Virus record (IMG/VR): IMGVR_UViG_3300010352_001202
Length of the DNA: 64,000 nucleotides
Reading direction: 5' to 3' (one strand)
Origin: a virus
Lineage: Duplodnaviria > Caudoviricetes
Below the pieces are notes generated by a model that saw nothing but the letters and a program-made list of their open reading frames with translations, was not told the DNA's origin and did not search any database. This document shows positions 22,819 through 27,433 of the stretch, one piece after another (the first letter of the stretch is position 1; every line of letters starts with the position of its first letter). Position numbers and translations under genes: made by a program.

Positions 22819-23164
22819 TCTTAATAAGAATTAGATTCAAGTCTCCCTCATCCTCGACGTCGTGCTGCTGTTGTATCCACGCGTCGAGGATTTTCACGTC
22901 TGCATACCATAGCTGGTGAAACGGAAAATCGGCATACGACTTGCATTCTAGATTCCAATGCTTCCACGACTCCGGTGGGTGAATATCGCCTTTCTTACTT
23001 TGCACTTGTGCGCTGCCGAGTGTTTCTTTACGGAAGTTATTCTTACCACCGACAAAGGCGCCGGAAGATGGAATCCTAATAAATGTTTCTCCATAGGTTT
23101 CAGTTAGAAATTTTGAAACTTCTAATTCCCATGCATTTCCCTTAGCCTTGCTCTTACTGGGCAT
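22598..23164 (-). CDS. Holliday junction resolvase (Hjc-like, PD-(D/E)xK)
   Basis: SKAKGNAWELEV...RIPSSGA...GDI...LECK pattern of Hjc-type phage resolvases. Confidence 0.75.
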   Translation of the reverse strand: MPSKSKAKGNAWELEVSKFLTETYGETFIRIPSSGAFVGGKNNFRKETLGSAQVQSKKGDIHPPESWKHWNLECKSYADFPFHQLWYADVKILDAWIQQQHDVEDEGDLNLILIKISRKEKWVVYPQNLGFLADRYLPYKGWMFVEWDHFWSQQPNRDLVKKYSTEGTDLTDKISHQSSQQVPQTCLP

Positions 23165-23879
23165 CTAAATTTTCCTTTAATATGGCTTCTATATTTTGCC
23201 TATCTTTTTTAATAGCATAGTAAGTTCGTTCTCTTATGCCTGTCACATCTCTTATTTCTTTTCTAGATTTATTTTCGTCTAAGAGACGAAATATAGTGTT
23301 ATAGTATTCTTTTTGGCAGATTATCAAACTTATACTATGTTTTTTTCGTGCCTCACTAATATTTCTACGACCGTTTTCCGATTTAGGCTTTTTTAATGCA
23401 TTTCCTAAATTTTTCTTATGTTCTTTTGTTCGTGTAGTTTTTTTCACACCCCTATTACCGCAACCGTTTTTATTTCCAATTCTTGCCAGACTCATTTTGG
23501 CACGAGTTTCAGGACTTACTATTTGATTCTTATTTGCGATACTAAGTTTCTGTTTGTGCTCTTCAGTCTTAGGAACACCTTTTCGAACTTCGGATAATCT
23601 TTTTTTATGCCATCCGTATAGTTTATTGTTTCTTACTACGCCCTGAGTGGATTGGCACAGCATTAAGACGGCATAAATGAGATTTTTATTATCAGGATAT
23701 ATTTTTACAAGTAGCTGATGTGCTAAGAAATGTTCTTCTGGGGTAAGAATGGCAATGTTATTGTCGTCATCGGTCCCGTTCATACATTTTGGTATAATAT
23801 GATGTCTTTCGGTGTACCCTTCGATATGTCGTGTCTTTGATCTATTGATTAGTTGTTCGTATATTTTTCTATAGTTCAT
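23154..23879 (-). mobile_element. Free-standing HNH homing endonuclease with NUMOD3-like repeats
   Basis: YTERHHIIPKCMNGTDDDNNIAILTPEEHFLAHQLL; basic KTEEHKQKLS/SPETRAKMS repeats; own GATAAATA at 23896-23903; overlaps the resolvase start. Confidence 0.85.
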
Positions 23880-23968: not shown

Positions 23969-24550
23969 ATGTACACAGTAGCATTTGAAAAGGCAGTCGA
24001 TCATGCGATGCTTTATGAAGTAGGTGGTTTTTGGAAATTAACCCCAGAAGTTGAGGCTGGCCTAATCGGAACCGCAGCGCAGAAAAAAGCTGTAGGATAT
24101 ACCAACGATCCACACGATAACGGTGGCGAGACAAAATTTGGAGTAGCAAAGAATGCTAACCTAGATCTCGACATTAAAAATTTAGACTGGAATGGTGCAA
24201 AAGAAGTGTACTATCGCCGTTATTGGGTCAACGGGTCTTGTGATAAGTTACCCGGTCGAATTGCTGTATTACATTTCGATGGTTGTGTAAATCACGGAGT
24301 AGGTCGTGCTAACAAATTTCTTCAAAGAGCCCTCAATGTCTCAGCCGACGGTGTAATTGGACCGGCAACATGCGCGAAGGCGAACGCTTCGGACGCAATT
24401 GATGTATGCAACGCAATCTGCGATCAGCGTACTCAATTCTATAAAGACATCGTTGCAAACAATCCAAGCCAGGGAAGATACTTAGGCGGATGGTTGCGAC
24501 GCATCGATGAAATGCGTGAATTTACATGTGATTTGACTAGAAATTTCTGA
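23969..24550 (+). CDS. Endolysin, glycoside hydrolase family 108 with C-terminal peptidoglycan-binding domain
   Basis: GYTNDPHDNGGETKFGV, YYRRYW, FDGCVNHG, LQRAL...DGVIGPAT, GWLRR; SD AAGGAG. Confidence 0.88.
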   Translation: MYTVAFEKAVDHAMLYEVGGFWKLTPEVEAGLIGTAAQKKAVGYTNDPHDNGGETKFGVAKNANLDLDIKNLDWNGAKEVYYRRYWVNGSCDKLPGRIAVLHFDGCVNHGVGRANKFLQRALNVSADGVIGPATCAKANASDAIDVCNAICDQRTQFYKDIVANNPSQGRYLGGWLRRIDEMREFTCDLTRNF

Positions 24551-24568
24551 GAAAAATTACACAAATTG

Positions 24569-24587
24569 GGGCCTTCGGGCCCTTTTT
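24569..24587 (+). terminator. Intrinsic terminator after the endolysin gene
   Basis: gggcc-TTCG-ggccc followed by TTTTT (cUUCGg tetraloop). Confidence 0.85.
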
Positions 24588-24605
24588 ACTTTTGTGTCAA
24601 GATTG

Positions 24606-24635
24606 TTGACATGCTTAGGGCATCGTAGCTAAAAT
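24606..24635 (+). promoter_or_regulatory. Sigma70-type promoter TTGACA-N18-TAAAAT firing into an ORF-free region
   Basis: Consensus -35, near-consensus -10; the -35 is half of the inverted repeat TGTCAA-N5-TTGACA (24595-24611). Confidence 0.65.
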
Positions 24636-24636
24636 A

Positions 24637-25215
24637 GTGTAACAGCACATAAGACTGTTACACAAAAGCAAATCAAAAGATAGCGGGACTGACGCGCCCC
24701 GTGAACATATAAGATCCACAGCGTATAGGTTTTAACACATCAAAACTACAATTACACATAAAACCCAAATCTAATTTCAAATCCAACCCAAGCAAAATAT
24801 TTCTAACACAATTTAAGGTTGACGAGCCTAGTTAAAATTTCGTTGGCGGGTCGTTCGGAATGGAGCGCAACAGCCAGGACCAATGGGTGTGCATTGGCAA
24901 ACTTCAATGAACCATAGTTCTACCTATGTAGTAAGTGAAGTGAATTAAAAATTTGTTGCGGGTATGTGAACGAAAGGTATGGCCTGCAAGCGGTGTAGCA
25001 ACTGACTGAAGAGGAGCTACAAGAAGCCGCGAGGATGTATGGTGCCGAGCACCTTATCCCCCTAATAGGCCGCGTAAATGCGTGAAGTTGACATAAGCAA
25101 TCCAATACTTCAACAATAGTCTATTTCAGTCTCTGCGATGCAGTCAAGTATCAAAAAGAAGGGTATCGAAACAAGGTTACATTTTTTTATGATCTTGTTT
25201 CGATACCCTTTCTCT
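24637..25215 (+). ncRNA. Candidate large structured non-coding RNA, family unknown (alternatively an origin-associated transcript)
   Basis: No credible ORF over ~700 bp in a densely coding genome; upstream promoter; more than 10 hand-paired helices, several with G-U pairs, plus a possible pseudoknot; ends in a 17-bp perfect stem. Confidence 0.5.
25159..25210. terminator. Long inverted repeat, probable terminator or processing stem between convergent transcripts
   Basis: aagggtatcgaaacaag (25159-25175)/cttgtttcgataccctt (25194-25210); followed by CTTTTT on the minus strand. Confidence 0.7.
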
Positions 25216-25298
25216 GACTCCACCGTCAAGTATTTGAAAACAATCACATATTAACTGTGTTGTATCTAATGTGGGACGAACGAATAACGAAGCGGAGT

Positions 25299-25874
25299 TT
25301 ACGAAGCGAGTGTTTCGTGAAGTTCCCGGTCTGTAAGACCGTTTACTGTTTGATCAGTTCTCTTATAAATTCGCTTCGCGAGCTTAACAATGTCGCTATT
25401 TGTTGTTAAGGCAAATTCAGAATGTGGTTTGAGCTTAATACCAAATATGTCGTTACCGAAAGTTTCGACTCGAATGACACCTGTGAACTTCGTGAAGTGC
25501 AAAGTCATAAATGCGCTGAGTCTGAGCTCTAGTTCCCCTATAAGTGTGGGCAGTTCTTGCAATGATTCTGCGTCAAAATGACGGATCAATTTAACTTCGC
25601 CCTTCGCTAAGTAGATCTCGCTATACAGGTGTCGGCCTGCAGGCTTTTTTATGTATATAAAGCCGGGTTGTCGAAGGACTGCCTTACTTGTTTCAAGATT
25701 CATATTTAATTCTCTGTCTGGCAGAGAATCTACTTCGTAAGGACTCCACTTAATGCCTTGAGCATCTAAGAGTCTTGATAGGTCGTAGACCCAGCGGTGT
25801 TTAGAATATCGTTCCCAACATTCAATATCATCCTTAGGGATATCAAGATCATATGTGTCGTGTTTCTTTTGCAT
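25299..25874 (-). CDS. Hypothetical protein, possibly degenerate ATP-grasp fold
   Basis: 191-aa ORF with SD AAGGA; motifs WERYSKHRWVYD, GRHLYSEI and FTGVIRVETFGNDIFGIKL recall a phage/bacterial ATP-grasp-like family (recalled, not searched). Confidence 0.55.
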   Translation of the reverse strand: MQKKHDTYDLDIPKDDIECWERYSKHRWVYDLSRLLDAQGIKWSPYEVDSLPDRELNMNLETSKAVLRQPGFIYIKKPAGRHLYSEIYLAKGEVKLIRHFDAESLQELPTLIGELELRLSAFMTLHFTKFTGVIRVETFGNDIFGIKLKPHSEFALTTNSDIVKLAKRIYKRTDQTVNGLTDRELHETLAS

Positions 25875-25924: not shown

Positions 25925-26356
25925 TTATTCCCCGGGGACCGGTATACCCTTCTTACCATTTGGTTTACCTTTTGCAGAATTAGAACCAAATATTCTGCCT
26001 TTTCTTTTAGATTCTACACCCTTCGTCGGTGATGGCGTTAGAGCGCATTGTTTTCTTACCCAATCATATTGTCTATTATTCAACCTATTTCCATATCTAT
26101 CGGTTCCCATGAGCATCGCCGCTTTAATCATTGAATGGTTATTTGGGTACATTCTTACTAAACACAAATGAGCAAACAGATGTTCTCTCGGAGTTAATAA
26201 TACAAGATTTGTTTCGTCATTAGTGCCACCAAGTGCCTTAGGTAAAATATGATGGCGTTCATAACAGACATATTTTTTATGATCTTTTTTGTACTTTTGC
26301 CTGCACTCAGATAATGCTCTCAATATGAGTTTATTATATATTCTTCTATAATCCAT
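25925..26356 (-). mobile_element. Free-standing HNH homing endonuclease; C-terminal tail appears frameshifted
   Basis: YERHHILPKALGGTNDETNLVLLTPREHLFAHLCL; KG-xP repeats continue in the +1 frame past the stop. Confidence 0.8.
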
Positions 26357-26357
26357 T

Positions 26358-26590
26358 TTACATATACTCTTTACCGCCCGGGTTCTGTTCCTTCATACGT
26401 TTGTTAATTACCTTAACAACGATTTCTCTATCTTCAAAACTCATACCCCACGCAGAATTCCATTCAATACCACCTTTCATAAAATAGCATAGATCAGCAA
26501 TTTGTTGCTTTAGAGCTATGCCATCTTTTACATAAGATTGTATTAGGTCACCCAATTCCTCAGGAGGCAGAAAAATCAAGGACCTTATGA
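26358..26590 (-). CDS. gp51-like small ORF; probable -1 frameshift extension of the upstream gp26-like gene
   Basis: IADLCYFMKGGIEWNSAWGMSFEDRE resembles small gp51-like ORFs; no ATG or SD at its 5' end; open in the -1 frame from the slippery site. Confidence 0.65.
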
Positions 26591-27433
26591 AAAATTTACG
26601 GGATTAAAATCAATTTCACTCTGCCATTCATGAGCACATTTTTCGCACTTCGCGGTAAATGTTCTCTTGATGCCAATTTGATTAATCTCGTCGATCAGGT
26701 CGCTGATTTTATCTACACTCTTCTTGTCGATGTTCATTAGGAAATCTTTAATAAACTTCTTGTCTGCAACATTAACGCCATCTGCTTCGTTTACAATTCT
26801 TACAATACCGTTGCACATTAGGTCAAATTTGGTTTGGCCAATTTCCTTGAACGCCTTATTGAAAATAAGCGATCTTTGCTCGTCTGTAATGCTGTCGTTG
26901 TCTACTGCGCGTGCAAGCTTATTTTGTTCAAATTGCGAGTGCAAACCTTTTAGCAATTCTGGAAACGAGTAGGGTTTTACGAAAACGCTAAGGCCGGAAT
27001 CCAAATTAATGACATAATCTGTTTCAAGCTTTGTCATGTTGTCTAGCGCAAACTGAAGATCTAATTTGTATGTATTTTCGGTTTGGCACTTTGGACACTT
27101 TAAGGTAGTTTCTAATGTGTCGTTATATGTAGCGTATCGAATAGCAGTAATAAGTGCATCGATGTCATTTGTTAGCAAAGCTTTGGGCTGTTTCAACGAT
27201 GGAACACAACTCAATAATACTTCGATCAAAGCCTCACCATTAAGTAATGCATCGGGGTTCTTTAGAGACAGTTCGTCCCTGCCAGTCATTGGCATTACAC
27301 CTACTTCTCCTTTTTCGGTGAACTGAATAACATCCGGTCCATAATAAGAAGTACCACTTGGCAGTTCGAGAAACAGTTTAAATGTTCTGAAATACTGCTT
27401 TAGTGGATTAGCCTGTTGTACAAATTGTTCCAT
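26585..27433 (-). CDS. Baseplate hub assembly protein/tail assembly chaperone, gp26-like
   Basis: NPLKQYFR...LELPS, PMTGRDE, DIDALITAIRYATY, two CxxC motifs (CPKC, CEKC), C-terminal FNPVNF; SD GAGG. Confidence 0.7.
   Translation of the reverse strand: MEQFVQQANPLKQYFRTFKLFLELPSGTSYYGPDVIQFTEKGEVGVMPMTGRDELSLKNPDALLNGEALIEVLLSCVPSLKQPKALLTNDIDALITAIRYATYNDTLETTLKCPKCQTENTYKLDLQFALDNMTKLETDYVINLDSGLSVFVKPYSFPELLKGLHSQFEQNKLARAVDNDSITDEQRSLIFNKAFKEIGQTKFDLMCNGIVRIVNEADGVNVADKKFIKDFLMNIDKKSVDKISDLIDEINQIGIKRTFTAKCEKCAHEWQSEIDFNPVNFS
26591..26597 (-). other. -1 ribosomal frameshift slippery heptamer A-AAT-TTT
   Basis: In-frame GTA AAT TTT TCA TAA; X-XXY-YYZ pattern one codon before the stop; the downstream ORF is in the -1 frame. 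Confidence 0.7.

Follow-up and report, generated by a model that had tools for sequence, protein, structure and literature searches.

Positions 24600-25233 on the + strand of a 64,000-nucleotide (nt) stretch of viral DNA (Duplodnaviria; Caudoviricetes; IMG/VR record IMGVR_UViG_3300010352_001202; the whole stretch is referred to here as the window) very probably constitute a stand-alone non-coding RNA gene of about 590 nt that has its own promoter, is structured and belongs to an undescribed family. The family itself is in all likelihood both real and new, matching no RNA family described to date. Some 70 related giant phages, all uncultured, share the RNA. It features at least 14 helices, one three-way junction and two pseudoknots, and in its compact core of about 325 nt a dozen covarying helices form two multi-helix domains that are locked by the pseudoknots. 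The parts of the RNA and the elements at its borders are listed below, with pair types followed by their counts.

24568..24593, + strand: intrinsic terminator of the endolysin gene, a GGGGCC-TTCG-GGCCC hairpin (24568-24583) and a T run
24597..24635, + strand: promoter, with an upstream box A-ATT-TT (24599-24606), a -35 box TTGACA (24606-11) and a -10 box TAAAAT (24630-35)
24642-45/24655-58, + strand: H1, 5'-terminal hairpin with an ACAG/CUGU core (alignment columns 92-95/127-130; last pair GC15/AU7)
24683-87/24698-702, + strand: H2, leader hairpin, GCGGG/CCCGU, with the near-invariant loop ACUGACGCG (24685/24700 is GC14/AU12)
24720..24806, + strand: conserved AGCGUAUAGGUUU, then a G-depleted, A- and C-rich unstructured spacer
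24807-10 with 24888-91, + strand: pseudoknot PK2, CACA at the spacer end with UGUG in the P4 loop
24821-25/24840-44, + strand: P1, core domain 1 (24821..24898)
24845-47/24873-75, + strand: P2, core domain 1 (GC24, AU3, UA1, UG1)
24852-56/24863-67, + strand: P3 hairpin, core domain 1
24878-85/24892-98, + strand: P4 hairpin, core domain 1, whose loop forms PK2
24901-06/24936-41, + strand: P5, acuuca/ugaagu, enclosing a variable hairpin (double changes in 6 of 6 pairs)
24956-62/24983-89, + strand: P6, uugcggg/ccugcaa, 100% paired (double changes in 7 of 7 pairs, e.g., GC12/UA9/AU6/CG2)
24990-99/25016-30, + strand: P7/P7a arm, whose loop (25004-25010) is the 5' strand of PK1
25004-25010 with 25125-25131, + strand: pseudoknot PK1, with five covarying central pairs (25006-10/25125-29)
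25033-44/25050-59, + strand: P8/P8a hairpin (25034/25058 is GC14/CG9/UA4; 25035/25057 is AU15/CG13)
25067-70/25119-22, + strand: P9, three-way junction (25067..25122; GC14/AU13/UA2 and others)
25071-73/25080-82, + strand: P10, three-way junction
25084-88/25107-11, + strand: P11, three-way junction
25131..25151, + strand: module M1, CUCUG, 7-8 nt, then repeat R1 GUCAAGUAU (25143-51)
25156..25211, + strand: P12 hairpin, long in the sub-clade of the window and 5-7 bp in most relatives, ending in the invariant GAUACCCUU (25202-10)
25211..25233, + strand: module M2, UCUCUG, ACUCCACC (8 nt), then repeat R2 GUCAAGUAU (25225-33)

Probes derived from the two flanking proteins led to 13 IMG/VR loci, and nhmmer found the intergenic stretch in all 13 of these at 70-77% nucleotide identity; the proteins flanking the RNA in relatives are just 48-70% identical. 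The 20-nt invariant loop GAYATAAKCAATCCAAYRCT, used as a search pattern, led to 46 viral and 84 metagenome loci, part of the latter being chance matches. The profile gave 118 hits, of which 98 were full-length cores and 59 were unique, and 50 non-redundant sequences remained after those more than 97% identical had been removed. Structure was tested on 29-50 of these non-redundant relatives, using a curated structure of 77 pairs in 16 helices (core alignment A2).

RNAalifold predicted 68 pairs from 29 sequences, 52 of which show compensatory changes. In the curated structure 94.8% of cells are paired, as opposed to 37-42% when the partners are slid by 1-3 columns, and the covariation score is 0.472 rather than 0.065-0.085. 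Covariation in related phages had been named in the original prediction, which was made by a model from the letters of the window, as a way to check the RNA, and double compensatory changes are indeed present in 59 of the 77 pairs, compared with 15-28 for slid partners. Values as high as those observed did not arise in any of 500 shuffles. The same helices were recovered by a mutual-information scan with average product correction and by a blind scan for stacked covarying pairs. Helix cells hold 2708 Watson-Crick, 213 G-U or U-G and 49 A-C or C-A combinations, and the excess of G-U over A-C identifies the folded strand as the + strand, in agreement with the strand bias noted previously.

No sign of translation accompanies these pairs. 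Column variability has no 3-base periodicity and no lag-3 peak (entropy by phase 0.745, 0.702, 0.793), and indel runs relative to the window are overwhelmingly frame-breaking, with 453 that are not multiples of three and 22 that are (remainder 1, 319; remainder 2, 134; remainder 0, 22). The lack of codon periodicity and the frame-breaking indels together indicate that the stretch is non-coding.

Covariation supports eight of the nine helices that had been paired by hand: the one at 24637-63 (with its core at 24642-45/24655-58), ccaatg/cattgg, acttca/tgaagt and its inner hairpin, ttgcggg/cctgcaa, gcgg+gtagc/gctac+ccgc, ggat+ggtg/cacc+atcc and gaagt/acttc. The ninth, gttgacga/tcgttggc, survives in its gacga/tcgtt pairs (P1) and fails in its outer part, where G45, G46 and C47 instead pair with 24873-75 to form P2. 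Helices P2, P3, P9, P10 and H2 are additions to the earlier set. Throughout core domain 1 (P1-P4), 88-100% of cells are paired, and 17 of 20 pairs show double changes. The interior of P5 carries insertions of 20-60 nt in some relatives. Long conserved loops and linkers accompany the helices. P6 encloses a nearly invariant GGUAUGUGAAA...GGUAUGG segment in which GGUAUG is duplicated (GGUAUG...GGUAUGG), P8 is flanked by an invariant GAG (25031-33) and CCCC (25059-62), and the loop of P11 (25089-25106) is the invariant UGACAUAA(G/U)CAAUCCAA, about 19 nt in length, which is the basis of the invariant search pattern described above.

A few further contacts were observed in the core. The ends of the P3 hexaloop, 24857 and 24862, co-vary, being G..G in 36 sequences and A..A in 13, which looks like a non-Watson-Crick closing pair as judged from the alignment. 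The blind scan also returned a candidate for a third long-range contact, 3 bp that would join 24848-24850, at the P2/P3 junction, to 24923-24925, in the variable P5-insert loop; it is too short to judge. A putative closing helix, P0 (AGG 24816-18/CCU 25207-09), is compatible with the alignment, with one side that never varies.

Both pseudoknots show covariation of their own. PK1 had been proposed as gactgaag (25004-25011) with tttcagtc (25124-25131), and support is found for its central five pairs, which change together (CG31/UA9, GC32/AU7, AU36/UA6). Its cells are 80% paired, compared with 26-41% when slid, and its covariation score is 0.335 compared with 0.07-0.09. Relatives use alternatives such as GUUAUA/UAUAAC, GACUAA/UUAGUC, UUGAA/UUCAA and CUGAG/CUCAG. 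PK2, which was absent from the earlier proposal, has pair counts of CG19/UA6/GC2, AU23/GC2, CG19/UA4/AU2 and AU23/GC2 and occurs in the variants UGCA/UGCA, UAUA/UAUA, CAUA/UAUG, UACA/UGUA and UCUAC/GUAGA, as well as GAAGA/UCUUC in the second type of the RNA described below.

The spacer between the leader hairpins and the core is conserved in a different manner. It is about 76 nt long, and over 27 relatives its mean composition is 48% A, 22% C, 5% G and 25% U. Its sequence and length vary among relatives, and its G depletion is retained. This composition indicates selection for an unpaired, G-poor tract.

The left boundary of the gene is as originally described, a terminator followed by a sigma-70-type promoter. 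The terminator sets the endolysin gene apart from the RNA gene, and the promoter matches at 11 of 12 positions with a spacer of 18 nt (24606-35). Its -10 box is kept in nearly all relatives and the upstream A-ATT-TT box is also conserved, while the -35 box is loosely conserved. The transcript is predicted to start near 24641-42. The composite promoter motif occurs once in the window and is not repeated elsewhere in it; thus, no temporal class can be inferred. On the right, the earlier end at 25215 has to be moved, since conservation extends to about 25233. Module M2, up to about 25233, is the last conserved segment and gives a putative 3' limit of the RNA. A terminator-like hairpin (CGGTCT-GTA-AGACCG and a T run; 25327-25341, +) is located inside the last codons of the convergent 191-amino-acid (aa) gene, and RNA transcripts that read through could in fact end there. 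The 17-bp stem formerly taken to bound the RNA on this side corresponds to P12. The stem is real and reaches about 22 bp in the minimum free energy (MFE) fold; that length is found solely in the sub-clade of the window, and the stem is mostly 5-7 bp elsewhere. A joint change of its strands among relatives (AUCCAA/UUGGAU to AUCUAA/UUAGAU) was found. Read on the - strand, the stem leads into a T run.

The 3' tail features a pair of modules with the plan UCUG-N8-GUCAAG (GUCAAG at 25143 and 25225) on either side of P12 and GAUACCCUU, and the repeats that end these modules change in concert. The 4-nt core of R1 and R2 is identical between modules in 47 of the 50 non-redundant sequences. It departs from GUCA in 14 sequences, and in 11 of these the same variant is found in both modules (GUUA, GGCA, GGUG or GGUA, CCCA, GUCG), with independent double changes in at least six lineages. 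Positional matches between R1 and R2 number 263 of 300, compared with 205 +/- 5 when permuted, and the mutual information of 25144/25226 and 25145/25227 equals the full column entropy. The block of identity is 7-9 nt long and shifts upstream or downstream by a few bases between lineages. R1 and R2 are spaced either 47-53 nt or 72-84 nt apart, and because this distance varies modulo 3, a coding concatemer across the repeats is ruled out. A switch by deletion or duplication of the tail unit at the DNA level is likewise ruled out, with exactly one unit in 67 of 67 unique homologs. The sole copy-number change seen in the tail is in one relative (L044), where the 3' end of the RNA has module M2 tandemly duplicated (ACTCCTCCGTCATCAT twice).

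No complement that consistently tracks the changes in R1 and R2 was found between -400 and +700 nt. The UGAC motifs in M2 and in the loops of H2 and P11 stay invariant even where R1 and R2 change, and so do not covary with the repeats, and a local UGAC/GUCA hairpin (P13) shows one-sided changes only. Without a cis complement that tracks them and with invariant UGAC motifs, the constraint on R1 and R2 is one of sameness as opposed to cis pairing. This sameness may point to one active site or trans factor that treats two equivalent sites, or to a strand copied on one repeat that anneals to the other.

The fold is also found at a second genomic location. Four complete, terminally redundant relatives of 363-385 kb were searched with a covariance model of 185 positions (R1, not to be confused with the repeat), which detects a pair of copies in three of them and a single copy in the remaining one. 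Copies at the site of the window (type A) score 163-185 bits and those at the other site (type B) 113-132 bits. Type A is always flanked by the endolysin gene and the 191-aa gene, with synteny kept in almost all copies, whereas type B has a kinase-like and a PhoH-like gene as its neighbors, in the vicinity of the clamp loader; both are located at convergent gene junctions. Like type A, type B has all helices, both pseudoknots, the same invariant loop, GAUACCCUU and the concerted pair of tail modules, and the 5' ends of its modules change jointly as well (e.g., UCUGUG, UCUAUAU, CCCAU). Unlike type A, it has a strongly diverged sequence and different neighbor genes. In a 385 kb relative (L040:7529-9933), the kinase-like gene beside type B encodes 162 aa and the gene on its other side a PhoH-like ATPase of 289 aa, and a gene of 280-289 aa occupies the same position in three of four type-B loci.

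Comparison with known RNAs returned no family. In Rfam 15, cmscan of the whole window gave no hits at gathering thresholds, and at E<=10 the RNA region gave only weak hairpin-type look-alikes on the 25150-25215 stem. ARAGORN detected neither a tRNA nor a tmRNA in the 64 kb window, and Rfam gave no match for tmRNA, group I or II introns or small self-cleaving ribozymes, so that the lack of tRNA, tmRNA and intron features reported originally is upheld. There are also no exons to join: the endolysin open reading frame (ORF) closes with a stop codon followed by a terminator, and the next gene downstream is encoded on the opposite strand. No paper describing the family was found in the literature. 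The earlier proposal of a large phage RNA from an undescribed family, with a size like that of ROOL or GOLLD, therefore stands on the covariation, the conserved promoter, the lack of coding signal and the absence of any Rfam 15 match or published description.

The closest analogues of the RNA are ROOL and GOLLD, although it is a member of neither. ROOL (RF03087) is a large phage-associated RNA that averages 581 nt and features multistem junctions and pseudoknots, with no known function (PMC5737381), and it assembles into RNA-only nanocages (PMC12286853). GOLLD (RF01998) is a very large, ornate RNA from phages, prophages and lake metagenomes, again with no known function, that builds a multimeric cage from RNA alone (PMC12286853, PMC5737381). 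Large size, multistem junctions and pseudoknots are shared by all three, a resemblance in kind only, and like ROOL the RNA described here has conserved loops that could mediate higher-order contacts. It has no covariance-model match to either family at any threshold tried. ROOL and GOLLD are often found beside tRNA genes and in prophages; in contrast, the 64 kb window contains no tRNA, and the RNA has a fixed synteny of endolysin, RNA and 191-aa gene. It differs from ROOL in being found in lytic-type jumbo phage genomes instead of prophages or bacteria, and in its far larger number of invariant nucleotides, its G-poor leader spacer and its concerted tail repeats, and it differs from GOLLD in size and architecture.

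These features suggest how the RNA might work. It probably acts in trans and depends on its tertiary fold, whether as a ribozyme, as an assembly made of RNA alone or as the scaffold of a ribonucleoprotein; antisense pairing or cis-regulation is probably not its mode. The sigma-70-type promoter would drive an RNA in which the H1/H2 leader and about 80 nt of G-depleted, single-stranded spacer precede the core and the tail, and the tail modules would be its reactive or recognized part. One active site or trans factor might handle both equivalent tail sites, for example by processing or excising a unit of 50-80 nt, or, alternatively, a strand made on one repeat might anneal to the other. A more specific version, in which a new natural ribozyme or self-assembling RNA machine uses its core to act on its own 3' tail at the two co-evolving sites (by excision, circularization or strand transfer of the GAUACCCUU unit), is unlikely, but if true it would represent a new class of RNA-catalyzed or RNA-templated two-step reaction. 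A search of the window for complements of the invariant P11 loop, as a trans target, matched only its own locus.

Other explanations account for parts of these data. The RNA could prime replication, which was the second option of the original prediction, with a transcript that stays hybridized to the DNA of the G-poor spacer at an R-loop origin and primes the leading strand, as at T4 oriF and oriG or with ColE1 RNA II. A strong promoter followed by about 80 nt of unstructured A/C-rich tract whose composition is kept while its sequence is not would suit such a role, as would the T4-like replication and recombination genes nearby (SbcCD, RusA), and ColE1 RNA II is itself a structured RNA of about 550 nt, a likeness that we count in favor of this explanation. 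However, an R-loop has no need of selection on RNA pairs, including G-U pairs and two pseudoknots, 200-500 nt downstream of the tract, and A/C-rich RNA gives a weak hybrid compared with G-rich R-loop formers. The selection on tertiary folding, the presence of two diverged copies in unrelated gene contexts in three of the four complete relatives (one copy in the fourth), and the location of both copies at convergent rather than divergent junctions make a primer improbable. A cis-acting or antisense element, namely a bidirectional terminator and 3' untranslated region for the 191-aa/baseplate-hub operon or for the endolysin gene, could explain why the 25156-25211 hairpin precedes a T run on the - strand and why the endolysin/RNA/191-aa synteny is kept in almost all type-A copies, and transcripts that read through to the + strand hairpin at 25327-41 in the end of the 191-aa gene would be antisense to it. 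Yet the long hairpin is missing from most relatives, conservation is lowest between R2 and the convergent stop codon, type B retains the whole fold beside unrelated kinase-like and PhoH-like genes, and a 325-nt core with two pseudoknots far exceeds what a terminator needs. We consider such an element quite doubtful.

The tail repeats raise the further possibility of a template. In the DRT2 non-coding RNA and in telomerase RNA, the short direct repeats that bound the template must match so that the nascent strand can re-anneal, and a polymerase that jumped between identical repeats, by DRT2-like rolling-circle reverse transcription or telomerase-like realignment, would produce tandem copies of a 50-80 nt unit. 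Direct repeats that vary yet must match, flank a hairpin unit and share an identity block that slides are what nascent-strand annealing would require. However, no RVT_1 reverse transcriptase (PF00078) was found in the four complete relatives, although the control genomes were positive, and the remainder of the RNA is unrelated to those systems. The unit length is inconstant, also modulo 3 (47-53 or 72-84 nt), and a template would leave the large conserved core unexplained, so we regard it as very improbable. Finally, the stretch might hold no RNA gene but the decayed remains of a mobile element or intron, genes for small proteins, or protein-binding sites in the DNA. HNH homing endonuclease genes lie close by (23154-23879, 25925-26356), short ORFs of 32-61 aa are present and TTGAC-like motifs recur. 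Compensatory changes and a G-U excess are strand-specific signatures of RNA, however; the absence of codon periodicity, the frame-breaking indels, the lack of intron or ribozyme hits and of exons to join, and the lack of the HNH genes in most relatives, which keep the RNA, all leave this explanation hardly credible.

Several points weigh against a trans-acting RNA gene as set out above and should be considered with it. The shuffle control ignores the relatedness of the sequences, which the slid-partner control does account for. Folding energy compared with shuffles, another check named in the original prediction, gave a divided result. The full stretch folds more stably than shuffles in either orientation (MFE z = -4.6 for the + strand, -3.9 for the - strand), a signal supplied by the terminal hairpins, while the core of about 320 nt alone (z = -0.24) is no better than shuffles. 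Single-sequence energy thus neither supports nor refutes the RNA and is no useful test of it. The expression, ends and processing of the RNA are all inferred from sequence, and catalysis or partnership with a protein is conjecture. Every relative is metagenomic. P12 also resembles a terminator of the convergent 191-aa gene, and part of the tail conservation could serve that role in the sub-clade.

Unusually dense covariation, two pseudoknots, long invariant loops, direct repeats that must match (a rare signature) and two diverged copies in most complete genomes make the family a prime subject for structural work and for assays of catalytic, templating or assembly activity. To our knowledge, very few natural RNAs are this large and complex beyond ribosomal RNA, RNase P, introns, OLE, GOLLD, ROOL and raiA, each of which opened new biochemistry or structural principles. 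The family shows that uncultured jumbo phages contain undescribed RNA classes.

The window is part of a jumbo phage genome. The baseplate hub protein encoded in it (26585-27433, -) shares 41% identity with the one in Pseudomonas phage PA5oct and 30-33% with counterparts in other 350-490 kb phages. The RNA family is restricted to a single clade of uncultured 360-385 kb jumbo phages that are distant kin of PA5oct. By contig names alone, the source samples comprise lakes, sediments, soils and rhizosphere, peat and sea water. Comparison of the RNA with 50,697 cultured phage records by blastn gave no match, and 185,579 prokaryote genomes held chance 20-mers only, with no full copy among representatives. 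In PA5oct, the nhmmer profile had no match in the syntenic region and the covariance model found nothing in the whole genome (best E 0.75).

The only long ORF-free stretch, as it had been called (24551-25298), is indeed the widest interval in the window when ORFs of 100 aa or more are considered. Its surroundings, in order, are as follows.

Gene 1, + strand: SbcC-like gene
Gene 2, + strand: structural gene, after the SbcC-like gene
Gene 3, - strand: RusA-like/PDDEXK gene
Gene 4, 23154-23879, - strand: HNH endonuclease gene
Gene 5, 23969-24550, + strand: endolysin gene (Pfam and PHROG)
Position 6, 24551-25298: ORF-free stretch with the RNA gene
Gene 7, 25299-25874, - strand: 191-aa gene with no assigned family
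Gene 8, 25925-26356, - strand: HNH endonuclease gene
Gene 9, - strand: 73-aa gene
Gene 10, 26585-27433, - strand: baseplate hub gene
Gene 11, + strand: tape-measure gene

The two HNH homing endonuclease genes, one on each side of the RNA locus, belong to the same PHROG family. Both are missing from most relatives, where the RNA is retained, which marks them as recent insertions that spared the RNA. The 191-aa neighbor has no Pfam, PHROG or Protein Data Bank (PDB) sequence match. Its AlphaFold model is of low confidence (predicted local distance difference test, pLDDT, 59), and all Foldseek matches are ATP-grasp enzymes (CPS1, D-Ala-D-Ala ligase, RimK) with a template modeling (TM) score of about 0.4. 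This low-confidence likeness is too weak to tie the protein to the RNA and was not used as evidence.

One relative departs further from the common form. At L012:6572-7372 (-), the promoter, H1, H2 and spacer are kept, and a core of about 470 nt is unrecognizable by sequence. This diverged core still holds GAUACCC and an M2-like module, and the RNA may represent a third, very diverged type.

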